Shown here one piece after another: positions 263 to 13,233 of a stretch of 13,233 nt of DNA. Position numbers and translations under genes: made by a program. Origin of the DNA: Okeania sp. (GTDB lineage Bacteria; Cyanobacteriota; Cyanobacteriia; Cyanobacteriales; Microcoleaceae); contig NZ_JAYKGW010000107.1 of the NCBI RefSeq assembly GCF_035285525.1, positions 1-13,233 of the forward strand. The letters are read 5' to 3'. Every line of letters begins with the position of its first letter. Within the stretch, counting starts at the first letter, position 1. Under the pieces are notes generated by a model. It did no database searches and was not told where the DNA came from. It saw nothing but the letters and a program-made list of their open reading frames with translations.

Positions 263-3200
263 TCAGACCGACAACATAATCTGAGAACCTTGACCAGTTT
301 TAGTAACTTCAATTCTAGCTTGAAAAGCTTCTTTAAAATGAGGAATATGAGTCACTGTTAATATACAAGAAAAATCAGCAGCAATGGCATTAATAGCAGC
401 AATTAATCTGTCACATCCCTCCGCATCTTGAGTACCAAAACCTTCATCAATAATCAACATTTGTAAGGCAGTACCAGAACGTTGCGCCAACAATTTCGAT
501 AAAGCCAAACGAATGGCAAAATTAACTCGAAAAGCTTCCCCTCCTGAATAAGTTTCATAAGGTCTGGTTCCTTTAGTATCTGCTATTAAAATATCTAATG
601 TATCTATCCATTTAGCATTTTTCTTACTTCCTTTTGTGGCTTTTTGGGTAACAAATTGAATGTGCAATTGATTAGCACTTAACCTCGCTAAAATCTGATT
701 AGTTTCTGCCTCTAACTGGGGCAAAATATTCTCAATCATTAATGCCTGAATCCCCTTTTTCCCAAAAGCTAAACCTAATTCCTGATAAACTCGATATTGC
801 CGTTTCGTAGTTTGTAATTCTGCCAATTGTTGATGATTCTGAGCTTGCAAATTTTCTAAATGTTGTAACTGTTGTTTCACTCTACCTAAACTTCCTAATT
901 TTTCGTCTAATTCCTGACGACACTCTTGAATTTTTTTATCTAAATAAGCAATTTTTTTATCCAGATTAGGAGCTGGTTCTAGCTGTTGATTTAAAACAGA
1001 TATCTGACCCTTAATTCCGGCTAAATCTTGCTGTCGATTTTCGATAACTTTATTCAATTCATTGATTCTGTCTAATAACTGAGGATATTGTTTTTGAGCT
1101 TGACGTAATTTTTCAACTCTAGTTAACCAAAATTGTGCTTTTCTCAACTCCGACCTAATATTATTATGTTCATCTAAATTATATCCAATCTCTGCCATTT
1201 CTCTCTCAATAACCAAAATTTGTTGCTGTACTTCAGAACCTTGTTTTTGTCGCTCCAAATCTTTTTCTAAACTAACAATTTGTGACTCAATTTCTGGCAT
1301 CTGACCCCGAACTTTTCCTAACTTTGTTTCTGCATCCTTAATTTGCCCATACTTAATTTCTGCCCACCTTAATTTTTTCTCCTCCTCCCTCGCTAAACTA
1401 TGACTCCGGTCATCATAATTAAACTGTTGAAGTTGCTGTTCTAAAGTGCTAATTTCAGCATATAAATTAATGGCAAAATCACCCGTATGTAGCGATCGCT
1501 CAACTTCCTCTACTTCCTTTACTAACTCTTGCAATAAACTTTCATCCTTTTGAATATTATCTAACTGTACCTGTAAACCACCCCGACGCTCCCGTAACTC
1601 ATCATATTCACTCAACTCGTCATCTATTTGTCGATATTCTGTTCTTAAAACGTGAATCTCTCGCTCAGAAATAGTCAGTTGTTCCCGCGCTACCCACAAC
1701 AAATCTCTAATTTCTCTTTGCTGACTTTGATGTTTATCCACCACCAAATGCCAATGATGTTCGTCCAAAGGACGATCGCACAACGGACAAGGTGGATATT
1801 CTTTGACTGTTATTTTGCCATTACCATTACCTTGATTTAATAATTGTAACTTTTGGTCTAACTCTTTCAGTCTGGTTTCATAATCTTTTTTATTGCGGAT
1901 TAAACGTTCTAAAAATTGATGTCTTTCCTGACCTTTTTCCCGCACCCGTTGTTGATAAACTCGCTTATTCTCCAGTTGAGAAATTTCTGTAACTACTTTC
2001 TCTAAAGTTGCTTTCAGTTGGGGTTGTTTTTGCTGTTGAGTTCGCCGTAGTTGACGGACTCTAGAATTAAGTTCTTCTAAACGTGCGCTCAAACGTGCTT
2101 GACCTTTTTCGAGTTCAGTTTGTAATTTTTGCCGTTGTTGTATCAGGGGAGCAACTTCTATTTGTAACTTATCTAGTTTATTTAATTTTGCTCTTGCTGC
2201 TTGTAGTTGCGCCAAAGCATTTTCAATATCAGCACCCTTGCTCAAAATATGCAAATTATCTTGTTCCTGGTCTTTCAGAGAGTTTAACTGTCCTCGATAT
2301 TGCTGAATATGGTTTTGGAGTTTCTGTAGTTGTTGCCGTTGTAACTCCTGAAGTTGTTGACGTTGATTGAGAGCATTTTGGTGTCTTTTAAATTTGGCAG
2401 ATAAATTTTCTTCCGTAGTTTGCAGATTTTGGAAATGAGCATATCCACTCTTAATTTCATTTTCCTGCTGCAATACTGCCAATAGTTCATCTTGCTGCTG
2501 TTGCGTAGTTGCGAGTTCCTGTTTGAGGCGATAACATTCTTGCACCAACTTGTCGTATTGTTGTTGTTGACTCCGCAATAATTTTTCCCAAGTTTGGCGC
2601 TCATGTTGTTGAGTTTGAAGTTGTTGAAGTTGTTCTCTATCAGTTTCTTGTTGTTGCTGTAGTTGAGTCAGAATAGTTTGGAGGTGACTTTGTTTTTGAG
2701 CGATCGCTTCCTTTTCTTGGAGTTGTTTTTGGTTCGTTACCAGACTTTGTTCGAGTATTTCCACTTTTGCTTTAAACTGTCGAGCAATATCTTTAGCTTT
2801 TTCTCCCAAAGCATCATATTGGTCAAGTTTCAACAGAGAAGCAAGAATTTCTTTCCGTTCATTGGGGCGCTTCAGCATAAACTCATCTGCCCTACCTTGA
2901 CGCAAATATGCAGAATTTACAAATGTTTCATAGTCAAGTTTCAGATGCTCAATAATATTTTGTTGAGTTGCTCTGACACCTTTTTGGGTCAGACTTTTAA
3001 ACCTGGAACCCGTATTAATTTGAAATTCTAGAGTCGGAGACTGACCCCGACGACGACCACGAATGACGCGATAGATGTTACCGTGAGTAGAGAACGTAAA
3101 ATCTACCCGTACCTCTTTTTCTCCCAAACTAATAATATCGTCTTCAGTTGCCGCGCGACTATTTCCCCAGATTGCCCAGGCGATCGCTTCTAATAGGGAA

Positions 3201-3313
3201 GATTTTCCAGCACCGTTGGATCCGCAAATACAAGCAGTGTGCAGACCTGTAAAATCCAAAGATGCTTCGTGATAGCTAAGAAAATTTTGGAGTTGCAGTT
3301 TTTGAGGAATCAT
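263..3313 (-). CDS. sbcC: SbcC/Rad50-family SMC-like double-strand-break repair ATPase with zinc hook
   Basis: 1016-aa ORF with ATG at 3313..3311. It has N-terminal Walker A GSNGAGKSS (about 3198..3224) and a long Gln/Leu/Glu-rich coiled coil. The central CxxC hook is PPCPLCDRPL (Cys-Pro-Leu-Cys codons at 1778..1789). The C-terminus carries ABC signature YSGGEAFRV, Walker B MLIIDEGFG and H-loop VTHIP. Three HIP1 sites lie inside (1492, 2700, 3180). Confidence 0.9.
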   Translation of the reverse strand: MIPQKLQLQNFLSYHEASLDFTGLHTACICGSNGAGKSSLLEAIAWAIWGNSRAATEDDIISLGEKEVRVDFTFSTHGNIYRVIRGRRRGQSPTLEFQINTGSRFKSLTQKGVRATQQNIIEHLKLDYETFVNSAYLRQGRADEFMLKRPNERKEILASLLKLDQYDALGEKAKDIARQFKAKVEILEQSLVTNQKQLQEKEAIAQKQSHLQTILTQLQQQQETDREQLQQLQTQQHERQTWEKLLRSQQQQYDKLVQECYRLKQELATTQQQQDELLAVLQQENEIKSGYAHFQNLQTTEENLSAKFKRHQNALNQRQQLQELQRQQLQKLQNHIQQYRGQLNSLKDQEQDNLHILSKGADIENALAQLQAARAKLNKLDKLQIEVAPLIQQRQKLQTELEKGQARLSARLEELNSRVRQLRRTQQQKQPQLKATLEKVVTEISQLENKRVYQQRVREKGQERHQFLERLIRNKKDYETRLKELDQKLQLLNQGNGNGKITVKEYPPCPLCDRPLDEHHWHLVVDKHQSQQREIRDLLWVAREQLTISEREIHVLRTEYRQIDDELSEYDELRERRGGLQVQLDNIQKDESLLQELVKEVEEVERSLHTGDFAINLYAEISTLEQQLQQFNYDDRSHSLAREEEKKLRWAEIKYGQIKDAETKLGKVRGQMPEIESQIVSLEKDLERQKQGSEVQQQILVIEREMAEIGYNLDEHNNIRSELRKAQFWLTRVEKLRQAQKQYPQLLDRINELNKVIENRQQDLAGIKGQISVLNQQLEPAPNLDKKIAYLDKKIQECRQELDEKLGSLGRVKQQLQHLENLQAQNHQQLAELQTTKRQYRVYQELGLAFGKKGIQALMIENILPQLEAETNQILARLSANQLHIQFVTQKATKGSKKNAKWIDTLDILIADTKGTRPYETYSGGEAFRVNFAIRLALSKLLAQRSGTALQMLIIDEGFGTQDAEGCDRLIAAINAIAADFSCILTVTHIPHFKEAFQARIEVTKTGQGSQIMLSV

Positions 3314-3365: not shown

Positions 3366-3633
3366 CGGTCGTTAGCAGAGTTTCCCCCAGGGTGGGATGG
3401 ATGGGTTCCTTAACCATATCCAATCGACCAAGACAGGGAACAGTAGAATCTCAAAAATTTCCGTTGCTTCAACTGTTATACCATCTTTTCTAGGTTGTCT
3501 GAAAAACAACTACTATTATTGATGGTGTTATTTTTTGAAGCATTCAGAACTCAGCTTAAGAGCAATAAAAATTAATAGGAAGCACTCTTTTAACTTCTAC
3601 TTTTCATCTATATATCTGACCTTGTAAAACTAT

Positions 3634-3785
3634 TAGGACTTACGCACGAACGCTATTGGTAGGGTGCGTTTTGCGTTCCGCAAAGCTCCGCTTTATATGT
3701 CGGCTCAAGCGCCGAAACGCTAAGCGACATGTCAAGGGCACAACGCACCAATACTCTATAATATAGTGCCTTTGCGTAAGTCCTG
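3634..3785. mobile_element. MITE, class A, 152 bp, no coding capacity
   Basis: Terminal inverted repeats are TAGGACTTACGCA (3634..3646) and TGCGTAAGTCCTG (3773..3785). A perfect 5-bp target duplication ACTAT lies at 3629..3633 and 3786..3790. The interior is full of nested inverted repeats (GGTGCGTT / AACGCACC). Confidence 0.85.
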
Positions 3786-3829
3786 ACTATGTATATTTAT
3801 GTCCATAAATTTATAGATTTGCTTCAAAA

Positions 3830-3850
3830 GCTAATAGCTGATAGCCGAAT
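3830..3850. repeat. Three tandem heptamers GCTAATA GCTGATA GCCGAAT
   Basis: Read directly; same heptamer family as 226..260. Confidence 0.5.
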
Positions 3851-3925
3851 ACTTACTATGATTTTTCACATCTTACATTAACACAAAAAATTAATTTTGG
3901 TATTAAAGTTCTATTTAGTAAAGGT

Positions 3926-3968
3926 AAGGAAGAAGGAAAAAGAAAGAAGAAAGAAGGAGAAAAAGAGG
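3926..3968 (+). repeat. 43-nt uninterrupted homopurine (A/G only) tract
   Basis: AAGGAAGAAGGAAAAAGAAAGAAGAAAGAAGGAGAAAAAGAGG contains no pyrimidine on the + strand. It includes GAAAGAA x2. Confidence 0.9.
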
Positions 3969-4166
3969 CTTTAGTTCTCTAGGAGAGAAACTTTAAGATC
4001 AGGAGAAACCTTACTTATATGGGGGTATTTGCAAACCTTCCATATCAGCAGGTGCTATAATACCGTTGGGTGTAGTTATTTGAATACGAAGATGTTGTAT
4101 ATGGGGTTTCATCAGTTGTTTGATGGGAATATAAATTAAGTTGGATAGATGTCATTTTAATTATTA

Positions 4167-4267
4167 TAGGACTTACACGGGAGGAACCCGGTTTCTGGGA
4201 TAAACCGGGTTTCTGGGTTCAGTTCAAACCACGAAAGTTGATCAACCCAGTTTCTGCGTAAGTCCTG
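4167..4267. mobile_element. MITE, class B, 101 bp
   Basis: Ends are TAGGACTTACACG (4167..4179) and TGCGTAAGTCCTG (4255..4267). A perfect 5-bp duplication TATTA lies at 4162..4166 and 4268..4272. The interior has AACCCGGTTTCT / AAACCGGGTTTCT / AACCCAGTTTCT repeats. The first ~37 nt match the reverse complement of the right end of 7727..7830. Confidence 0.85.
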
Positions 4268-4314
4268 TATTAGTTATCAGCTTTTAGTTATTCAAAATAT
4301 GCTGTATAATATAA

Positions 4315-4405
4315 CAGAATTTATGCAAAGGCACTATATATAGAGTTTTGGTGCGTTAGCGTCAGGGTAACGAACCCTACAGATAGCGTCCATGCGTAAG
4401 TCATA
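4315..4405. mobile_element. Degenerate short class-A MITE
   Basis: Ends are CAGAATTTATGCA (3 mismatches to CAGGACTTACGCA) and TGCGTAAGTCATA. The interior GGCACTATATATAGAGTTTTGGTGCGTTA (4330..4358) is identical to 5159..5187 and homologous to the reverse complement of 3742..3770. No clear target duplication. Confidence 0.6.
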
Positions 4406-4499
4406 AAAGAATTTATGCACTGAAGCAATAAATTAGGTTTATTATCTTATTGTTTTTCTCTTTTACCAAATTTATTGGACAAACTCGCTCTAACTAAAT

Positions 4500-4602
4500 C
4501 AGGACTTACGCACTCGCAACCAAGAAACCGGGTTTATTGCGGTTATCTTGTTGCTCAGACGAGGAAATTTCCTTGATCAATCCGGTTTCTGGGTAAGTCC
4601 TA
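4500..4602. mobile_element. MITE, class B, 103 bp, ending 24 nt upstream of the VOC start codon
   Basis: Ends are CAGGACTTACGCA (4500..4512) and TGGGTAAGTCCTA (4590..4602). The interior has AGAAACCGGGTTT and CCGGTTTCT motifs as in the other class-B copies. Flanks are TAAAT (4495..4499) and TAAAA (4603..4607), matching 4 of 5. Confidence 0.8.
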
Positions 4603-4626
4603 TAAAAATTAATCTGGAAAATATTT

Positions 4627-4995
4627 ATGCAAATAACTCAATATCTCCATACTGCTCTCTTAGTTTCAGACCTAGAAAAGGCCGAACATTTTTACGGTCA
4701 AATTCTTGGTTTGGTACAAACAGATCGCTCTCTTAATTTTCCTGGCACCTGGTATCAAGTTGGTAACTTTCAAATACATTTGATAGTGTCTTCAGAAATA
4801 ATTCCTGATGTTGTTAACTCAGAAAAATTAGGCAGAAACAGACATTTAGCATTTTCTGTCGCTGACTTAGATGCTACTAAAGCACAACTGCTAGCAAATA
4901 ATTGCCCAATTCAAATGAGTGCTTCCGGTCGCGCTGCATTATTTACCCAAGACCCCGATGGTAATATTATAGAATTACAAGAGATTAATAATTAA
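4627..4995 (+). CDS. VOC-family (glyoxalase / bleomycin-resistance / extradiol dioxygenase fold) protein, 122 aa
   Basis: Single-domain ORF with typical VOC motifs: LHTALLVSDLEKAEHFY at the N-terminus, RHLAFSV, and DPDGNIIELQE at the C-terminus. Candidate metal ligands are H8, H73 and E116. Substrate is unknown. Confidence 0.8.
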   Translation: MQITQYLHTALLVSDLEKAEHFYGQILGLVQTDRSLNFPGTWYQVGNFQIHLIVSSEIIPDVVNSEKLGRNRHLAFSVADLDATKAQLLANNCPIQMSASGRAALFTQDPDGNIIELQEINN

Positions 4996-4996
4996 T

Positions 4997-5130
4997 CAGG
5001 ACTTACGCATAATCGACGAGTTTTGGTGATTTGAGATTGCTATTCTTACGGACTGCGACCCATTCATGTCGCGGAGCAAAACGCTATCGCTCGTATCGGA
5101 CAGAAATGCATTGCGCGTGCTTAAGTCCTG
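4997..5130. mobile_element. MITE, class C, 134 bp, inserted 1 nt after the VOC stop codon
   Basis: Ends are CAGGACTTACGCA (4997..5009) and TGCTTAAGTCCTG (5118..5130). A perfect 5-bp duplication TTAAT lies at 4992..4996 and 5131..5135. The left copy contains the TAA stop at 4993..4995. The interior is unrelated to classes A and B. Confidence 0.85.
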
Positions 5131-5277
5131 TTAATAATTCAGCACTTACCCAGAGAGAGGCACTATATATAGAGTTTTGGTGCGTTACGAACTGCGCTAA
5201 CGCACCCTACTAGACCGTTTCATCTAAAATGGTGTATGGGGTAGGGGCGGGTTTATGCGGTAATTTTGATACTACTC

Positions 5278-5447
5278 TAAGATTTATACAAACCCGCCCC
5301 TAAGACGGTGGCTTATATCACTGGGGGCGGGTTTATCTAACGAGCTATAGAAAACTCGTTGTTAAGATTTATACAAACCCGCCCCTAAGACGGTGGCTTA
5401 TATCACTGGGGGCGGGTTTATCTAACGAGCTATAGAAAACTCGCTGT
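5278..5447. repeat. 85-bp tandem duplication (2 copies, 1 mismatch)
   Basis: 5278..5362 and 5363..5447 are identical except T/C at 5359 versus 5444. Each copy carries one right arm and one left arm of the GC hairpins. Confidence 0.9.
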
Positions 5448-5474
5448 AGGGACGCCCTTATGCAACGTCCCTAC
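5446..5474. repeat. 29-nt stem-loop small dispersed repeat GTAGGGACG-CCCTTATGCAA-CGTCCCTAC
   Basis: 9-bp perfect stem with an 11-nt loop. It sits inside the loop of the third GC hairpin. Confidence 0.8.
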
Positions 5475-5535
5475 GGTGAAACCCGCCCCTACGGCGTCTT
5501 ACTAATGCACTATTTTAGGCGAAACAATCCACTAC

Positions 5536-5728
5536 TGAATTGTTTCATCTTAAATGGTGCATTAGGGAGTAGGGGAGTGGGGAAGTGTGGGAGTGGGGGA
5601 GAAAGATTATTGTCCTTGTTTCGTCCCTCAACCCAACCTACAGCTATTGCTGCGCTCCTTGTACGGACGTTGCATAAGGGCGTCCCTACGGTGTGTTACT
5701 AATGCACTTTTTTAGCTGAAACAGTCTA
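5536..5728. mobile_element. Inner element D2, a second unit of the same family
   Basis: Starts TGAATTGTTTCATCTTAAATGGTGCATTAG and ends CTAATGCACTTTTTTAGCTGAAACAGTCTA. CTAC lies on both sides (5532..5535 and 5729..5732). The interior has G-rich degenerate heptamers (AGTAGGG GAGTGGG ...) and a 29-nt stem-loop repeat. Confidence 0.65.
5661..5689. repeat. Same 29-nt stem-loop repeat in the opposite orientation
   Basis: GTACGGACG-TTGCATAAGGG-CGTCCCTAC is the reverse complement of 5446..5474 with one mismatch. Only the loop reveals the flip. Confidence 0.8.
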
Positions 5729-5763
5729 CTACCAATAGCGTTCATGGATAAGTCTTGTATTAA

Positions 5764-5787
5764 TTATTCATTATTCATTATTCATTA
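5764..5787. repeat. Perfect tandem heptamer TTATTCA x3 plus a partial copy, ending 14 nt upstream of the recombinase-homologue start
   Basis: TTATTCA at 5764..5770, 5771..5777 and 5778..5784, followed by TTA. Confidence 0.85.
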
Positions 5788-5801
5788 ATTTCCTACTGCT
5801 T

Positions 5802-7112
5802 GTGAAAATTATTGCCTATTCATACACAGACCCTCTGTTGGAAACTGCACCAGACCTCACAATCTGGGGATGGGAAGTTGATGAGATATATCAAGACTTG
5901 GGCGATCGCCAACAACTTGAACAACTCTTCCAAGACTGTCACATCCAACCTGTTAATTATCTCTTGATTCGCCAACTTGAAGAGTTAGGAGATTCTGTAG
6001 AGGAAGTCTGCGATCGCCTCACCGAACTGGAATTTCTCAATATTAAAATTATCTCCCTGAAATCAGATATTAAAATCAACCAAGACCAAGCTATTAATAG
6101 ACAAGCAACCAAAACTGACTTACTTAAACTTCTAAACCAAATTCGTCAAAACCAACATAGTCGGAAAATTCGTCAAGCTCACGCTCGCAACCGGATGAAA
6201 GCTATACCTCCGCCGGGGAAAGCACCTTACGGATATCGGCGAGGGAAAGACCGTTACACTCTTGACCGCAGTGCGGCCTCTGTAGTCAAAGATTTTTTTG
6301 AAAGGTTTTTATTATTCGGGTCTCTGCGGGGTGCTGTGCGTTATATTGAGAAAAAACACGGCAAAAAAATTTCTGTTACTACTGGACGACGGTGGTTAAG
6401 CAGTCCTGTTTATCGCGGTGACTTACAATATCAAAATGGGGAGGTTATCTCTAACACCCATCTACCAATTATTTCTAGGGAAGAAGCTGCCCAAGTGGAA
6501 CGTTTGCTCCGGCGCAACAGTTCCATGCCACCCCGCACTGCTAGTGCTCCCCATTCTTTAGCAGGTTTAGTTGTCTGTAGAGAATGTGAATCTCCGATGA
6601 TTACTGCTAGAGTGACTACATTTCGCAAAGATAGAGAATATCTTTATTTGCGACCTAAAAGTTGTTCTCGCAAACGCAAATGTAAAGCTTTAGCTTATCA
6701 AAAAATATTGGAGCAAACTATAGAAATAATTTGTCGAGAATTACCTCTTGCTGTTGCTGCTTTAGAAATGCCAAATATGGATGGAATTAAAAGTAAAATT
6801 AAACAGCATATTTCTGAGAAACAAGAGATTCTTTGTCAACTACCAAATTTAGTAGCTAATGGCATTTTTGATCGAGAAACTGCCGAACTCCGGACTTACA
6901 AATTAAAAACAGAAATTTCCCAATTAGAAAGTCAATTTAACCAACTACCACCAGTCAATTTATTAGAGACTGCTAAAGCAGTTTCCATACCCCAATTTTG
7001 GTGGGATTTATCTGAATCAGAACGGAGATTTTATTTACGAGAATTTATTAGCATAATTGAAATAATTCGTCAAGAGAACAGTTGGGATTTAGAAGTTATT
7101 TTTATTTTTTGA
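5802..7112 (+). CDS. Large serine recombinase homologue with a degenerate (probably inactive) catalytic domain
   Basis: 436-aa ORF with a GTG start; there is no in-frame ATG between it and the upstream stop at 5700..5702. The N-terminal resolvase-like fold reads MKIIAYSYTDP and LLIRQLEELGDS. The recombinase domain (GKAPYGYRRGKDRYTLD ... WLSSPVYRGDL), Cys-rich zinc ribbon (CRECESPM ... CSRKRKCK) and C-terminal coiled coil are intact. HIP1 sites lie at 5902 and 6010. Confidence 0.85.
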   Translation: MKIIAYSYTDPLLETAPDLTIWGWEVDEIYQDLGDRQQLEQLFQDCHIQPVNYLLIRQLEELGDSVEEVCDRLTELEFLNIKIISLKSDIKINQDQAINRQATKTDLLKLLNQIRQNQHSRKIRQAHARNRMKAIPPPGKAPYGYRRGKDRYTLDRSAASVVKDFFERFLLFGSLRGAVRYIEKKHGKKISVTTGRRWLSSPVYRGDLQYQNGEVISNTHLPIISREEAAQVERLLRRNSSMPPRTASAPHSLAGLVVCRECESPMITARVTTFRKDREYLYLRPKSCSRKRKCKALAYQKILEQTIEIICRELPLAVAALEMPNMDGIKSKIKQHISEKQEILCQLPNLVANGIFDRETAELRTYKLKTEISQLESQFNQLPPVNLLETAKAVSIPQFWWDLSESERRFYLREFISIIEIIRQENSWDLEVIFIF

Positions 7113-7704: not shown

Positions 7705-7726
7705 AAAAAAAGGTAATTATTAATTA
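7705..7726. repeat. Left copy of the 22-bp direct repeat AAAAAAAGGTAATTATTAATTA abutting the MITE
   Basis: Identical to 7831..7852 and directly adjacent to the MITE terminus at 7727. Confidence 0.9.
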
Positions 7727-7830
7727 CAGGACTTACGCAGATGAACCCAGAAACCCGATACGAGGGTAGATTATTACTGCTCAAAACAACGATTTATCCT
7801 AGAAACCGGGTTCCTCCCATGTAAGTCCTA
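7727..7830. mobile_element. MITE, class B, 104 bp, in the kinase upstream region
   Basis: Ends are CAGGACTTACGCA (7727..7739) and CATGTAAGTCCTA (7818..7830). Its reverse complement begins TAGGACTTACATGGGAGGAACCCGGTTTCTAGGATAAA, matching 4167..4204. CGGGTTTCTGGGTTCA is shared with 4167..4267. Confidence 0.85.
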
Positions 7831-7852
7831 AAAAAAAGGTAATTATTAATTA
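7831..7852. repeat. Right copy of the 22-bp direct repeat
   Basis: Identical to 7705..7726 and ends 23 nt before the kinase ATG. Confidence 0.9.
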
Positions 7853-7875: not shown

Positions 7876-10800
7876 ATGAATAACAATCAAATTACTATTC
7901 TGATAGTTGATGATCGACCTAATAATTTATATCTTATTTCTGAAATTATTAGTGAAAAAGGATATAATTTAATCCAGGCAACTTCTGGGGAAGAAGCATT
8001 AAAATCTGCAAAGAGCCAGCCATTAGATTTAATTTTAATGGATGTTATGTTGCCAAAAATGGATGGTTACGAAGTCTGTAAAGTTTTAAAAGCTAATCCT
8101 AAAACTGCTAATATTCCCGTGATTTTTCTAACCGCTTTATCTGATATTGATCAAAAATTAAAAGGATTTATTGTCGGGGGAATAGATTATATTAGTAAAC
8201 CTGTTCATCCGGGAGAATTATTAGCAAGAATAGAAGCTCAAATTACAATTAGTAAACTTCGCCTAGAATTAGAAACTAAAAATCAGCAACTACAACAAGA
8301 AATAGGAATAAAGAAACAGACCGAAAAAAATTTATCGGCAATTATTAATAATATGTCAGAAGGTTTGATGATTATTAATAAAGAAGGTAAGATAGTTTTT
8401 GTGAATCAAGCTTCAGAATTATTATGGCAAAAATCAGCAGCAGAATTAATAGGTGAAGAGATAGGTTTGCCTCTGATAGATGGCAATGAAACAGAAATAT
8501 ATGTTAGACAAAAATTAGGGAAATTAATATTTCTAGAAACACGGATAGGAGAAATGATTTGGCAAAATCAAACTGCTTATCTATTGACTATGAAAGATGT
8601 TACAGAACATCGTCAAGAACAAGAACGTTTAAAGTTACTAGAAAGAGCAATATTTACTGCACCTCAAGGAATAGTAATTGGTGATGTAAATTTAGATAGT
8701 CAACCGATAATATATGTTAATTCTGGTTTGGAAAAAATTACAGGTTACTCTTCAGTTGAAGTTGTTGGGAGAGATTATCCCTTTCTAGGAGATACTGATA
8801 CAAATCAACCAGAAATAAAGGAAATTAGAGAGGCGATCGCTACGGGAAAAAAATGCCAAGTCATCTTGCCAAATACCCATAAAAATGGTAATAAATTATG
8901 GAACCAAGTAACAATTTCTCCAGTTTATGATGACTACGAAAATTTGACTCACTATGTAGCTGTGCAAGTAGATGTAACTGACCGCATAATTGCAGAAATG
9001 GAACTTTCTGCGGCTAAAGTTTCTCTGGAAAAACAAATACAACAAGCATTATTGCTCAAAGAAATTACTGATAAAATTCGCTCTAATTTGGAACCCACAC
9101 AAGTATACGAAACAGCAGCAACTCAAATAGCAAAACTTCTCAATGTAGATTCTTGTCTTATCCATACCTATATAGAATCTCCTATACTCAGAATTCCCAT
9201 AGTAGCTCACTATCAAAACTCTCATGTTGACTTAAACTCTAACTTGGAAATACCCATATTAGGTAATCCTCACGTTCAACTTATCCTGGGACAGGATTCA
9301 GCGATCGCTACCGATAATATTTACACCGAAGAAAAGCTCAAACCAGTTTTGCCTTTATTCGAGCAACTCAACATCAAATCAATAATGGTAATTAGAACTT
9401 CCTATCAAGGCAAAACTAACGGAGTAATTGGTTTATATCAATGTAGTTACACCCGTCATTGGACAGGAGAAGAAAAAGAGTTATTGGCAGCAGTAGCAGC
9501 TCAACTTGGGATTGCTATTGCTCAAGCAAATCTTTTAGCACAGGAGAAACAACAAGGACAAGAATTAGCAAAACAAAATCAACTGTTGCAGCAAGAAATT
9601 TCTATTAGAAGACAGATAGAAGAATCACTCAAAAAAAGTGAGGAACGTTGGCAATTAGTATTAAAAGGTAATAATGAAGGAATTTTTGACTGGAATATTA
9701 AAACTAATCAAGCATTTATTTCACCCAGGTTAAAAGCAATATGGGGATATGAGGAACATGAAATTATATCTCATTATCACGAATGGAGTAGTCGTATTCA
9801 TCCAGATGATTACAATAAAGTGATAAATTATTTACAAGAATATCTAGAGCAAAAGCATTCACAGTTTAGGATTGAATATCGAACAGTTTGTCAAGACAAT
9901 ACCTATAAATGGATTGCAGCTAAAGGACAAGCGCTTTGGGATAACAATGGTGTTCCCAAAAGAATGGTAATTTCTCATCAGGATATTAGCGATCGCAAAG
10001 AAATAGAAGAAGCTTTAAAAGCAAGTGAAATTCGTTATCGGGAGTTGGTAGAGTCACAGGATAGTGTATTAGTTTGTAGATGGAAACCAGATGGTACACT
10101 CACATTTGTTAATAACCACTACTGTGAATTTTTTGGGAAATCTGCAAGTGAACTATTAGGTAGTAAATTTTCCCAATCAATACAGAATGAACTAAGTCAG
10201 CAACATATTGAGTCAATGAATCCTAAAACTTTAGAAAATCAGATGACATCTGTTTCTGGAGAACTACGATGGTTAAGTTGGACTAATCAACCAATTATTG
10301 ATAGTAATCGTAATTTAATCGAATTTCAATCTTTTGGCATTGATATCACACAACAAAAACAACGGGAAGATGCTCTCAGGTTGATAGTTGAAGGTACTGC
10401 AACCCATACAGGTGATAATTTTTTCCTTGCTTGTGTTGACAAGATAGCTCAACTTTTACAAGTTCGTTATACTTGTGTTACTGAATTAAAGCAGTCAGAA
10501 AATCTCTTAGAAATGAGAGCATTTTGGAATGGTTCAGAAGTCAAAAATCATATTGTATATTCTCCCCAACACACTCCTTGTGAGAAAGTATTGGAGGGGA
10601 AAATTTATCATTATCCAGAATGTGTACAACAACTTTTTCCTAATGATACTTGGTTAGTTGACTTCAATATAGAAAGTTATTGGGGTATTCCTCTATATAA
10701 TTCTCAAGGAGAAGTTATTGGTTTATTGGGAGTGATGGATGTCTTACCCATGAATATTAGTTCGTCTCAAGAGTTAATATTGAAAATTTTTGCAGCGCGA

Positions 10801-13233
10801 GTGGGAGCAGAATTAGAACGTTTGCAAGCAGAGGAAAAACTGAGAGGTTCTCAACAAAGACTTTCATTTCTCCTAGAAAATACTCCAGTGGGTGTGATTG
10901 AATGGAATACTGAGTGGGAAATTGTTGCGTGGAACCATACCGCAGAATTAATTTTTGGTTACACTGCTAGGGAAATAATAGGTAAGAAAGGATTAGAATT
11001 AATAGTTCCTCAAAATAGTAACACTTTGGTGGAAAGTGGTGAAATAGTTGTGGGTGACAACTGCATCATCACCGAAAACTTAACGAAAACAGGTAAAACA
11101 ATTGTTTGCGAGTGGTACAATACACCTCTCTTAAATCCAGAAGGAACAACTATTGGATTTGCTTCTCTTGCTATTGATATTACCGAGCGTCAACAACAAG
11201 AATTATTAGAAAATGCTCAAAATACGACTCTGAAACTATTAGCTCAAGGTAAATCATTGCAAGAAGTATTATTAGAATTAACCACTCAAATAGACAAAAT
11301 ATTACCATCACTAAATTCTGCCATTCTTTTACTAACAGAAAATCGTGAATATTTACGTCCTTTTGTAGCACCTAATGTACCTCAAATTTGGCTTCAAGCT
11401 ATTGATTCTATACCTTGGAAAAATCTTTGTTCTTTGAGTAAAGTAATTAATCTTCATCAACGGGTAATTATTGAGGATATTGTTAATGCTCCTGAATGTT
11501 CAAGTATCAAGGAAAAAGCTTTATTTAGTGGTTTGTATTCTGGTTGGTTTGAACCAATTTTTTCTGATGGAGAAGAGCAAGTTATAGGTGTTTTTGTAAT
11601 GTACTTTCATAATCAGCGATCGCCAGAAACTAGAGATTTAGAAATACTTGCCTCTTTAGCCAGATTAACTGGTTTAATTATTGAACATAAGCAAGCAGAA
11701 ATTGATCTGAAAAATGCTAAAGAAGCTGCGGAAACTGCCAATTTTGCTAAGAGTAATTTTCTCGCATCTATGAGTCACGAATTGCGTACTCCTTTAAATG
11801 CAATTTTAGGTTTTAGTCAATTATTAGCCAGGGATAATTCTTTAAATAAACATCAAATTGAACAAATAGAAATTATTAATAATAGTGGAGAACATTTGCT
11901 AAGTTTGATTAATGATATTTTATCAATGTCTAAAATTGAAGCTGGAAAAGTTACACTCAAAGAAGATTTATTTGATTTATACAGTTTTCTGCAAAATCTA
12001 CAAGATATGCTCAGTGTAAAAGCCAATGAAAAAGGTTTAGAATTTTTATTTAAACTGGCAGATGACCTGCCTGAAATTATTACTGCGGATGAAGGAAAAT
12101 TGCGTCAAGTTCTAATTAATATTATAGGTAATGCTATCAAATTTACATCTCAAGGAAAAGTTATTTTGTCAGTATCTAATAGTAACTCTTCAGATAAGAT
12201 AAAATTTGCCATTGCCGATACTGGTCGAGGCATTGCAGAATCAGAAATAGATGCTTTATTTGAACCTTTTGTGCAAACTACTACAGGTAAAAAAACCATA
12301 GAAGGAACAGGTTTAGGTTTACCTATTAGTCGTAAATTTGTGCAGTTAATGGGTGGAGAAATATCTGTTAGTAGTCAAGTCGAGAAAGGCACAACTTTTA
12401 CATTTGAAATTATTGCCAAAAATTCCGGAAAATCAAAAGAAATATCAATCAGAGAAACATTAGCTAATCAATCAAAAATAGTAGACTTAACATCTAATAA
12501 ATATAGATATCGAATTTTAATAGCTGAAGATATCGAAGAAAACAGTCAATTATTATTACAATTACTTGAACCTTTAGGATTTGAACTTCAGGTAGCTGAA
12601 AATGGTAAAAAAGCTATATCTATTTGGGAAACTTGGAAACCACATTTAATTTTTATGGATATTGTTATGCCTGTTATGGATGGTTATGAAGCAACTAAAA
12701 TTATTAAACAAACAGCCTTGGGTAAAGCTACTACTATTATCGCTGTAACTGCTAATGCTTTTGATGAAAATCGTGATGCTATTTTAGCCGCTGGTTGTGA
12801 TGATTTTATTACTAAACCTTTTTCAGAAAATCTATTACTAGAAAAGTTAGCTAATCATTTGGGAATAAATTATTCCTATGAAAAGGAAGAAGGAATTCAG
12901 AATTCTGAATTCAGAAGGGAGGATGAACTTGGAAAAAATAACTTTTTTTCTTCAGAAAAAAGAAGGCAGGAGGAAGGAGGAAAAAATAACTTTTCTTCTG
13001 TTGCTACAAAATCACAAATAGAAGTAATAAAAGAATCTTTAAATATCATGTCTTCTGAATGGTTAGAACAATTACATTTTGCTGTATTATCTGTTAATGA
13101 TCGCCAAGTAAGTGAATTAATTATGCAGATTCCTAAAACAGAGGTAAAACTAATTAACTACTTAAAAAATCTAGTGGAAAATTTTCGTTTAGATGTTATT
13201 CTGGAATTAATAGAAAATCAGGAATATTTGTAA
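7876..13233 (+). CDS. Hybrid sensor histidine kinase: REC, PAS, LOV-like PAS, GAF, PAS, PAS, GAF-like, PAS, GAF, HisKA, HATPase, REC, C-terminal extension
   Basis: 1785-aa ORF. REC1 has DD at 12-13, acceptor D56 (LILMDVMLP, nt 8041..8043) and the ISKP lysine. There are multiple PAS and GAF blocks. The H-box is SHELRTPLN (H1301, nt 11776..11778), with N box GNAIKFT, G1 DTGRGI and G2 GTGLGLPIS. REC2 has acceptor D1595 (LIFMDIVMP, nt 12658..12660) and TKPF. Four HIP1 sites lie inside. Domain boundaries were read by eye and are approximate. Confidence 0.9.
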   Translation: MNNNQITILIVDDRPNNLYLISEIISEKGYNLIQATSGEEALKSAKSQPLDLILMDVMLPKMDGYEVCKVLKANPKTANIPVIFLTALSDIDQKLKGFIVGGIDYISKPVHPGELLARIEAQITISKLRLELETKNQQLQQEIGIKKQTEKNLSAIINNMSEGLMIINKEGKIVFVNQASELLWQKSAAELIGEEIGLPLIDGNETEIYVRQKLGKLIFLETRIGEMIWQNQTAYLLTMKDVTEHRQEQERLKLLERAIFTAPQGIVIGDVNLDSQPIIYVNSGLEKITGYSSVEVVGRDYPFLGDTDTNQPEIKEIREAIATGKKCQVILPNTHKNGNKLWNQVTISPVYDDYENLTHYVAVQVDVTDRIIAEMELSAAKVSLEKQIQQALLLKEITDKIRSNLEPTQVYETAATQIAKLLNVDSCLIHTYIESPILRIPIVAHYQNSHVDLNSNLEIPILGNPHVQLILGQDSAIATDNIYTEEKLKPVLPLFEQLNIKSIMVIRTSYQGKTNGVIGLYQCSYTRHWTGEEKELLAAVAAQLGIAIAQANLLAQEKQQGQELAKQNQLLQQEISIRRQIEESLKKSEERWQLVLKGNNEGIFDWNIKTNQAFISPRLKAIWGYEEHEIISHYHEWSSRIHPDDYNKVINYLQEYLEQKHSQFRIEYRTVCQDNTYKWIAAKGQALWDNNGVPKRMVISHQDISDRKEIEEALKASEIRYRELVESQDSVLVCRWKPDGTLTFVNNHYCEFFGKSASELLGSKFSQSIQNELSQQHIESMNPKTLENQMTSVSGELRWLSWTNQPIIDSNRNLIEFQSFGIDITQQKQREDALRLIVEGTATHTGDNFFLACVDKIAQLLQVRYTCVTELKQSENLLEMRAFWNGSEVKNHIVYSPQHTPCEKVLEGKIYHYPECVQQLFPNDTWLVDFNIESYWGIPLYNSQGEVIGLLGVMDVLPMNISSSQELILKIFAARVGAELERLQAEEKLRGSQQRLSFLLENTPVGVIEWNTEWEIVAWNHTAELIFGYTAREIIGKKGLELIVPQNSNTLVESGEIVVGDNCIITENLTKTGKTIVCEWYNTPLLNPEGTTIGFASLAIDITERQQQELLENAQNTTLKLLAQGKSLQEVLLELTTQIDKILPSLNSAILLLTENREYLRPFVAPNVPQIWLQAIDSIPWKNLCSLSKVINLHQRVIIEDIVNAPECSSIKEKALFSGLYSGWFEPIFSDGEEQVIGVFVMYFHNQRSPETRDLEILASLARLTGLIIEHKQAEIDLKNAKEAAETANFAKSNFLASMSHELRTPLNAILGFSQLLARDNSLNKHQIEQIEIINNSGEHLLSLINDILSMSKIEAGKVTLKEDLFDLYSFLQNLQDMLSVKANEKGLEFLFKLADDLPEIITADEGKLRQVLINIIGNAIKFTSQGKVILSVSNSNSSDKIKFAIADTGRGIAESEIDALFEPFVQTTTGKKTIEGTGLGLPISRKFVQLMGGEISVSSQVEKGTTFTFEIIAKNSGKSKEISIRETLANQSKIVDLTSNKYRYRILIAEDIEENSQLLLQLLEPLGFELQVAENGKKAISIWETWKPHLIFMDIVMPVMDGYEATKIIKQTALGKATTIIAVTANAFDENRDAILAAGCDDFITKPFSENLLLEKLANHLGINYSYEKEEGIQNSEFRREDELGKNNFFSSEKRRQEEGGKNNFSSVATKSQIEVIKESLNIMSSEWLEQLHFAVLSVNDRQVSELIMQIPKTEVKLINYLKNLVENFRLDVILELIENQEYL
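8638..8985 (+). other. LOV-like PAS domain of the kinase lacking the adduct-forming cysteine
   Basis: GIVIGDVNLDSQPIIYVNSGLEKITGYSSVEVVGRDYPFLGDTDT ... NTHKNGNKLWNQVTISPV ... YVAVQVDVTDR is colinear with LOV domains. The canonical GRNCRFLQG reads GRDYPFLGD, with Tyr301 at nt 8776..8778. Confidence 0.65.
12893..12912. repeat. Perfect 20-bp palindrome GAATTCAGAATTCTGAATTC inside the kinase linker
   Basis: Self-complementary over all 20 nt and contains three overlapping or adjacent GAATTC sites. It encodes part of GIQNSEFRRE. Confidence 0.9.

Follow-up and report, generated by a model that had tools for sequence, protein, structure and literature searches.

A widespread cyanobacterial family of catalytically dead large serine recombinase homologues, linked in its core clade to a VOC-fold gene

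Introduction

The large serine recombinases (LSRs) of solved structure are phage integrases (Listeria A118/LI 4KIS, Bxb1, PhiC31 and the 9dxd/9dxf/9dxh complexes), which are phage-borne, act on att sites, and share helix alpha-A and the invariant motifs R-x-S and D-R-x-x-R. Mutants of resolvases, invertases and integrases that lack S10 or one of the catalytic Arg residues cleave DNA very poorly or not at all. Within cyanobacteria, the XisF protein responsible for fdxN-element excision in Anabaena/Nostoc PCC 7120 is itself catalytic, is encoded inside the element that is excised, and needs XisH and XisI. There is also precedent for a purely regulatory output of serine-recombinase DNA binding, as the Tn3/gamma-delta resolvase represses tnpA and tnpR by binding res. 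Herein, we describe an LSR homologue in which the catalytic Ser and Arg residues are replaced, encoded at positions 5802..7112 of a 13,233-nucleotide stretch of DNA from Okeania sp., a marine filamentous member of the Microcoleaceae (contig NZ_JAYKGW010000107.1; hereafter the window), and the cyanobacterial family to which it belongs.

The presence of a serine integrase is commonly taken to mark mobile DNA, and annotation pipelines label members of this family 'recombinase family protein' or 'DNA invertase Pin-like', such that prophage and island finders will count the gene as mobile. A public Okeania sp. record identical in protein sequence to the window protein (P0001) carries the first of these labels.

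Results

The catalytic residues of serine recombinases are replaced throughout the family

The gene under study is an open reading frame (ORF) of 436 codons on the forward strand whose frame is unbroken. It starts with GTG rather than ATG, as do 12 of 64 orthologues, and this start is confirmed by alignment since the orthologues begin MKIIAYSY at the same position. A preliminary description, made from the letters alone, had reported an uninterrupted frame with a series of recombinase motifs, all of which we found. The nucleotide positions it gave for D10 (5829..5831) and E60-D64 (5979..5993) were correct, and the two HIP1 sites it counted in the gene are located at 5902 and 6010. The features on which the catalytic argument depends are as follows, with gamma-delta numbering given for what we take to be the equivalent positions:

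5802..7112, forward strand: gene for the catalytically dead LSR homologue (436 aa, GTG start, stop included)
5823..5831, forward strand: codons Y8-T9-D10, located at canonical R8-V9-S10, the last being the nucleophile (MAFFT alignment with canonical LSRs; family counts)
5979..5993, forward strand: codons E60-E61-L62-G63-D64, located at canonical D-R-L-G/S-R, gamma-delta D67, R68 and R71 (hmmsearch, MAFFT and hhalign)

The second of the two motifs was placed by three methods. An hmmsearch with the family profile against the TP901-1 catalytic domain, a MAFFT alignment of 17 family members with 15 canonical LSRs, and hhalign all agreed that L59-E60-E61-L62-G63-D64 falls on L-D-R-L-(G/S)-R, which confirms by profile alignment the LEELGD/LDRLGR correspondence of the preliminary description. 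For the first motif, the MAFFT global alignment places A5-Y6-S7-Y8-T9-D10 on G-Y-x-R-V-S, consistent with strand b1 of the predicted structure. Local profile alignments stop short of the first 22 residues, as these are followed by a segment about 12 residues shorter than its counterpart in genuine recombinases. Helix alpha-A bears the nucleophile at its N-terminus in canonical enzymes; here it corresponds to a gap in the MAFFT alignment, and its place in the model is taken by a Pro-rich loop that makes one helical turn.

In a canonical set of 24 LSRs, R8, S10 and both Arg residues of DRLxR are invariant. Residues counted from 95 family members were distributed as follows:

Position 8, canonical R: Y in 91, F in 3, H in 1
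Position 10, canonical S (nucleophile): D in 49, P in 17, N in 12, E in 12, S in 4, A in 1
Position 60 (gamma-delta D67), canonical D: E in 53, A in 15, S in 12, H in 8
Position 61, canonical R: E in 70, D in 24, Q in 1
Position 64, canonical R: D in 75, N in 13, E in 6, S in 1

The proposal that every canonical catalytic residue is replaced thus holds family-wide for the Ser and the three Arg residues. It does not extend to D32 and R36, the equivalents of gamma-delta D36 and R45, which are kept and, like Y6, are present in 95/95 members. The replacements first read as Y8, D10, E60, E61 and D64 likewise have family-wide counterparts, with the qualification that position 10 is variable rather than a conserved Asp and that position 60 is moderately conserved.

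No compensating Arg was found in the family alignments, nor did any orthologue that we saw carry the complete RVS/DRLGR set. D-R is retained in the second motif of two divergent members, which nevertheless lack R8, S10 and the last Arg. We also considered S7 or T9/S9 as an alternative nucleophile. Position 7 varies among S, L, I and T; position 9 is Ser or Thr in 81/81 core-clade orthologues and I, R, Y, V, W, C, G or A in divergent members. The candidate was rejected on this variability. We infer that strand exchange by serine-recombinase chemistry is impossible for the family protein.

The remaining LSR architecture is intact

The preliminary description held that the rest of the LSR architecture is retained, and this was borne out by Pfam, by profile-profile comparison and by structure prediction. 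The domains are arranged as follows:

5802..6101, forward strand: degenerate resolvase-fold N-terminal domain, residues 1-100 (PF00239, model, Foldseek, charge)
6111..6215, forward strand: helix alpha-E and basic linker, residues 104-138, holding the family-invariant GHA.NR...PPPG
6216..6551, forward strand: recombinase (DNA-binding) domain, residues 139-250 (PF07508, A118 match, dN/dS, charge)
6558..7109, forward strand: zinc ribbon with inserted coiled coil and C-terminal strands (Cys259, Cys262, Cys288 and Cys294; helices over 299-381)

The Pfam Recombinase domain (PF07508) is matched over residues 158-239 at 45.6 bits (cutoff 21.1, E 8.6e-12), the Resolvase domain (PF00239) over residues 24-131 only at 28 bits (cutoff 23.3), and the Zn_ribbon_recom domain (PF13408) marginally over residues 253-306, at 25.1 bits against a cutoff of 25.3. 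When the family profile was compared by hhalign with the profile of the 24 canonical LSRs, residues 23-420 aligned with a probability of 100% (E 1.4e-59). The best solved relative by sequence is the C-terminal region of the Listeria A118 integrase.

An AlphaFold model built from the 95-sequence alignment (pLDDT 87.8, pTM 0.78) has the fold of an LSR, as did its Foldseek matches; a structural overlay was among the checks proposed in the preliminary description. The N-terminal domain is predicted to comprise strands b1 (3-9), b2 (28-33), b3 (53-56) and b4 (82-85) and helices at 37-48 and 66-78, and is followed by a long helix alpha-E (104-132) and a predicted helical recombinase domain. The C-terminal half is modelled as a beta-ribbon (257-285), a two-helix coiled coil (approximately 299-381), and closing strands (416-434). 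The top Foldseek matches in the PDB were full-length serine integrases on att DNA (9dxd, 9dxf, 9dxh, Bxb1 9iu2 and PhiC31 9tep/9rah), and the DNA-bound A118 C-terminal region matched the model with a TM of 0.61. The N-terminal domain matched the catalytic domains of Sin, gamma-delta and TP901-1 with TM values of 0.54-0.67, with Sin and gamma-delta at 0.6-0.67.

Conservation and charge differ between the parts of the protein. Family-invariant motifs fall in the DNA-binding parts (GHA.NR, PPPG.AP.GYRR, GSLRGAVR and W.L..PVYRG), and all core-clade members keep the zinc-ribbon residues C259, C262, C288 and C294, the first three of which are invariant family-wide. The N-terminal domain of the window protein has a net charge of -12 and an isoelectric point (pI) of 4.2; across the family its charge ranges from -1 to -12, being -4 or lower with a pI of at most 5.5 in 16/17 members, whereas canonical LSRs range from approximately -6 to +8. 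The net charge of the recombinase domain is +12 in the window protein and +5 to +14 across the family.

The family spans the cyanobacteria and is under purifying selection

Using a scan with one genome per species, we identified the family in at least 532 species genomes. The best 80 loci all came from different assemblies, corresponding to one locus per genome in this sample. Full-length matches at 62-90% identity were recovered by a word-indexed search from Okeania, Trichodesmium, Dapis, Microcoleus, Kamptonema and Phormidium, as well as from Planktothrix, Lyngbya, Limnospira, Chroococcidiopsis and Gloeocapsa. Searches seeded with divergent members reached Thermostichus (the hot-spring 'Synechococcus' lineage) and Synechococcus PCC 7336, along with Leptolyngbya, Phormidesmis, Halomicronema, Cyanobacterium, Geminocystis, Hydrococcus, Xenococcaceae and Arthrospira, such that the family ranges from Thermostichus and PCC 7336 to the Nostocales. 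The more distant the taxon, the lower the identity, which is what vertical descent of an anciently acquired gene would predict. In an exhaustive search of representatives, full-length family members were at least 38% identical and scored 230 bits or more, as compared to at most 30% and 83 bits for canonical LSRs.

Strong purifying selection on every domain was evident from pairwise Nei-Gojobori estimates of dN/dS against ten close orthologues, with the tightest constraint on the recombinase domain (about 0.05):

Whole protein: 0.09-0.15
N-terminal domain: 0.12-0.30
Helix alpha-E: 0.02-0.11
Recombinase domain: 0.04-0.08
Zinc ribbon and coiled coil: 0.10-0.21

The presence of members throughout the phylum and the selection acting on them, together with the same substitutions in orthologues, dN/dS values near 0.1 and the LSR fold, substantiate the earlier view of a retained derivative rather than a decaying pseudogene. 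The pseudogene reading, in which the gene is a lone degenerate allele of an active integrase, has the missing catalytic residues in its favour and nothing further, and is refuted by the conservation counts, the dN/dS values and the separation of the family from canonical LSRs: the frame is intact in hundreds of species, the substitutions occur in all orthologues, and the family contains no catalytic orthologue.

The family gene lies in a chromosomal host-gene context free of mobile-element genes, both in the window and in approximately 90 loci. No family members were found on 72,556 plasmids or in 50,697 phage records, in which only canonical integrases matched, at 21-26% identity, and PADLOC returned no match to the family. 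Membership in a defence system or a phage was rejected on these grounds. The closest relative that keeps the catalytic residues is a protein with 30% identity, P0211 (L084:1093-2412). Its gene ends a string of small same-strand genes, cyanophage- or prophage-like, that includes an NblA homologue and a DNA methylase, and this setting fits a cyanophage or prophage origin.

Some divergent members have a synteny of their own. At two Synechococcus PCC 7336 loci (L083 and L088), the family gene lies between mlaE, on the opposite strand, and chlL-chlN, with no VOC gene nearby. This synteny is common to the two contigs, and their family proteins fall in separate 50%-identity clusters.

A VOC-fold gene is the only shared neighbour

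We clustered the ORFs of 81 loci and found a single shared neighbour. It encodes a protein of approximately 120 aa and lies upstream of the family gene in 76 loci, without exception on the same strand. In the window it is:

4627..4995, forward strand: VOC/glyoxalase-fold gene, the conserved partner (122 aa, single domain; Pfam, NCBIfam, PDB)

A tblastn recheck of the remaining loci identified one copy cut by a contig end, one remnant, and one locus without upstream room, bringing the VOC gene directly upstream on the same strand in 77/79 informative core-clade loci. The two loci truly without it are both from Nostocales (L028 and L063), with none within 5-6 kb. The remnant, in Kamptonema sp. 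UHCC 0994 (L015:5906-5998), is a 33-aa VOC C-terminus upstream of an intact family gene. The VOC and recombinase-like genes overlap by 4 bp in 11 loci, and the gap is below 30 bp in approximately 40 loci in all. The linkage of the family to a VOC gene is new here; the preliminary description, which had only the sequence to go on, missed the partner gene.

The partner protein matches PF00903 at 42.5 bits (cutoff 20.6), and H8, H51, H73 and E116, a metal-ligand-like set, are invariant in 76 orthologues. It fits no named subfamily: its best match, YaeR/SMU1112c, reached 39.6 bits against a cutoff of 140, and the glyoxalase I models TIGR00068 and NF050074 gave 24.9-25.9 bits against cutoffs of 120-165.

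In the Geminocystaceae, Cyanobacterium aponinum (L087:5394-5798) and Geminocystis NIES-3709 (L089:5388-5819) have a different VOC gene instead, immediately downstream of the family gene, which encodes a GloA-type glyoxalase I. These copies share 89% identity, as compared to 29% with the window VOC protein. The occurrence of two distinct VOC genes at distinct positions beside the family is suggestive of a functional tie to the VOC class, and could be coincidence.

Two loci also have a ParA/CbiA-like ATPase gene (approximately 197 aa) on the same strand about 160-240 bp upstream of the family gene (L089:3167-3760 and L090:3254-3844). As it was seen only in Geminocystis and Cyanobacterium sp. HL-69, and was absent from all other loci examined, it was rejected as a general partner.

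Window context, repeats and upstream sequences

The other features of the window are:

263..3313, reverse strand: SbcC/Rad50-like ATPase gene (1016 aa, weak Rad50 zinc-hook match)
4996..5801, no strand: 806-bp spacer between the VOC and recombinase-like genes, filled with small repeat elements
7876..13233, forward strand: very large hybrid sensor kinase gene (more than 1785 aa, extending past the window end)

The hybrid sensor protein contains a receiver, multiple PAS and GAF domains, HisKA, HATPase and a second receiver. No sbcD-like ORF of at least 60 aa was listed in the 262 nt remaining downstream of the SbcC/Rad50-like gene in the window. No phage, plasmid or transposase genes were identified among the window genes, and an Rfam scan of the window gave no match.

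In this genome, small repeat elements have pushed the VOC and recombinase-like genes apart. The 12-mer AGGACTTACGCA occurs in 9 copies as compared to 0.04 expected, located at 3630-5130 and 7724-7740 of the window, mostly as inverted pairs 100-150 bp apart (3635/3784, 4501/4601 and 4998/5129). This is the pattern expected of miniature inverted-repeat elements filling intergenic DNA. At positions 5278-5447, an 85-bp unit that includes a GC-rich hairpin (GGGGCGGGTTT...AAACCCGCCCC) is duplicated in tandem (99% identity). The duplication adjoins a 37-nt inverted repeat (5438-5474 / 5661-5697), and a run of GGGAGTGG-type 8-mers is found near it at 5565-5604. Two small ORFs within the repeat DNA (5031..5213 and 5460..5702) had no Pfam match.

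A further inverted repeat of 47 nt (4161-4207 / 7790-7836, 89% complementary) brackets the VOC and recombinase-like pair, and was considered as a pair of recombination sites. Its core recurs in other intergenic DNA of the window and it is absent from the 14 closest orthologous loci, which marks it as a genome-specific dispersed repeat and not a conserved site; the candidate was therefore rejected. The preliminary description had noted neither att-like repeats nor an interrupted gene adjacent to the recombinase-like gene. The second part stands, as no interrupted gene lies nearby, while the first needs amending, since elements resembling miniature inverted repeats and the 47-nt pair do exist, albeit specific to this genome.

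A block, approximately AAACTAcGTCAAAATyTAAATA, is common to eight Nostocaceae loci (L032, L034, L035, L038, L058, L062, L072 and L074) some 50 nt ahead of the VOC start codon. In most of them a HIP1 site (GCGATCGC) comes next, about 12 nt upstream of the VOC ATG. No other element was found to be shared within the Nostocaceae. The shared block is probably the operon promoter and 5' untranslated region. HIP1 itself was rejected as a conserved target, as no HIP1 site occurs in 13 kb at the Oscillatoria PCC 10802, Halomicronema and Thermostichus loci.

Discussion

The loss of serine-recombinase catalysis together with functional retention of the protein is, taken on its own, very likely. As to what the protein now does, our preferred explanation, to which we assign a probability of roughly 0.6, is that the family is an exapted ('domesticated') LSR that serves as a non-catalytic, site-specific DNA-binding derivative. 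The parts that hold DNA in solved LSR complexes are the most basic and most conserved parts here, which makes a dimeric, non-cleaving, site-specific binder the most economical model. A dimer would bind a specific DNA site through the C-terminal half of alpha-E, the linker, the recombinase domain and the zinc ribbon, and its coiled coil may bridge DNA sites, such that the protein would act as a transcriptional or architectural factor without cutting. The former active-site pocket, now acidic and aromatic (Y6, Y8, D32, R36, E/D61 and D/N/E64), might keep out the scissile phosphate, accommodate a ligand or partner, or do both.

The near-universal, co-oriented and often translationally coupled VOC gene of the core clade suggests that the two proteins act jointly. 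The VOC gene could be a co-regulated target, could encode an enzyme whose substrate or product is sensed, or could encode a physical partner in the manner of recombination directionality factors, which bind the coiled coils of LSRs. Most likely, the family descends from a serine integrase of cyanophage or element type that cyanobacteria acquired early in their evolution, probably near the base of the phylum.

Several points weigh against this explanation. DNA binding by the family protein is deduced from its conserved basic LSR DNA-binding parts, and the register of the first 10 residues is likewise a predicted one, based on global alignment and the structural model in place of a solved structure. 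We applied an expectation-maximisation (EM) motif search to the 250 bp upstream of the VOC gene and the 250 bp downstream of the recombinase-like gene from 26 non-redundant loci. The information content was barely over that of shuffled controls, and in this search no candidate binding site conserved between clades emerged on either side of the operon. In Thermostichus, PCC 7336 and three other divergent members, the family gene has no VOC gene next to it, and this absence beside early-branching members means that it is not an obligatory partner of the whole family. Lastly, the strong conservation of the remodelled pocket could equally mean new chemistry.

The alternatives that fare best are nonetheless improbable. 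One is that the family protein is a non-catalytic partner, decoy or inhibitor of active LSRs, such as XisF-type excisases or prophage integrases, acting through mixed oligomers or the occupation of att sites. Such a protein would, for example, control excision or block phage integration, a role that we likewise consider improbable. The retention of the dimerisation helix alpha-E and the coiled coil would suit this role, as would the identity of the best named relative, XisF, and the phage-borne nature of the closest catalytic relative. Cyanobacteria also carry many active LSRs (PMC4874684; PMC11249958). With 20-30% identity to any catalytic LSR, however, the family is far removed for specific hetero-oligomerisation or shared site recognition. 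Its high constancy in non-heterocystous and early-branching lineages, and where no excision elements are known, is also at odds with the fast turnover of mobile recombinases and their sites, and the loci examined revealed no linkage to a recombinase or element.

Alternatively, DNA binding may also have been lost, leaving a scaffold or adaptor that works through the acidic N-terminal domain and the coiled coil, for instance with the VOC protein. We regard this as similarly doubtful. The strong acidity of the N-terminal domain and the absence of a conserved local DNA motif in the above search are compatible with it, and the tight, often overlapping coupling to the VOC gene suggests a stoichiometric complex. 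A protein that had given up DNA would not be expected to keep its recombinase domain and alpha-E/linker as its most basic and most conserved parts, with family-invariant motifs, nor to retain zinc-ribbon Cys ligands and a model that superposes on the DNA-bound A118 C-terminal region with a TM of 0.61.

On a more speculative note, the Tyr/Asp/Glu/Arg cluster could be a re-invented metal-dependent catalytic or ligand-sensing centre, with the VOC enzyme making or removing the signal. We consider this unlikely, to about the same degree as the two preceding alternatives; if true, the family would represent a new site-specific DNA transaction or a small-molecule-gated DNA-bridging switch.

Slightly less probable still is the narrower proposal that the remodelled pocket is a new active site for DNA, whether by a Tyr plus acidic/metal transaction (nicking, or transesterification like that of a Toprim-plus-tyrosine topoisomerase) or with T9/S9 as a nucleophile. 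The resolvase fold resembles metal-dependent 5'-3' exonuclease and Toprim-type folds, and the pocket is strikingly constant, with Y6, D32 and R36 in 95/95 members, Y8 in 91/95, an acidic residue at position 61 in 94/95, and D, N or E at position 64 in 94/95. Purifying selection, not drift, acts on the N-terminal domain, and Ser or Thr occupies position 9 throughout the 81 core-clade orthologues. Other aspects of the same alignment do not fit: position 9 is not Ser/Thr in divergent members, position 10 is freely variable, Y8 becomes Phe or His in 4/95, position 60 is A, S or H in one third, and position 64 is Asn in 13. The gene neighbourhood gives no pointer to DNA cutting, and we know of no solved serine-recombinase relative with such chemistry.

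The data show that a clade found in at least 532 species genomes has been kept by its hosts for a purpose other than recombination. It constitutes a natural experiment in which the recombinase, zinc-ribbon and coiled-coil modules persist without catalysis. The data point to an unrecognised putative DNA-binding factor in cyanobacteria that include bloom-formers and nitrogen fixers (Trichodesmium, Okeania, Nostoc), and to an unstudied VOC enzyme coupled to a recombinase-like gene.

The full-text literature that we searched, whose coverage is incomplete, holds no description of the family or of any phylum-wide catalytically dead LSR; given this incompleteness, an earlier description is possible. 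Hilton et al. (2016) reported 44 xis-like genes without an interrupted gene nearby (PMC4874684), some of which may belong to the dead-LSR family. The orthologue in Calothrix NIES-4101 carries the annotation 'hypothetical protein', and its locus-tag number, 38090, does not occur in the text of that genome's recombinase survey (PMC11249958).

Comparison with known systems

The best named relative of the window protein is XisF (NCBIfam NF041201), matched at 121.4 bits over residues 35-421. Both are cyanobacterial, of similar length, and have the same domain order. The score lies well below the equivalog cutoff of 375 and, unlike XisF, the window protein lacks the Ser and three Arg residues and is encoded outside any element, with no interrupted gene nearby. 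The phage integrases share its overall fold, and those of solved structure are 13-19% identical to it. The Tn3/gamma-delta resolvase, whose repressor activity offers the nearest functional parallel to the role that we propose, is a working recombinase encoded by a transposon, whereas the family gene has lost catalysis and belongs to the host. For the partner protein, the closest comparison is with single-domain VOC proteins (glyoxalase I, YaeR/SMU1112c-like proteins, FosA, and the natural-product sequestration proteins 5umq/5ump), with which it shares the fold and His/His/Glu-type positions, yet it scores far below the cutoff of every named subfamily. Collectively, the family is homologous to LSRs and has the same fold, yet lacks both the catalytic residues and the association with mobile elements by which LSRs are defined.

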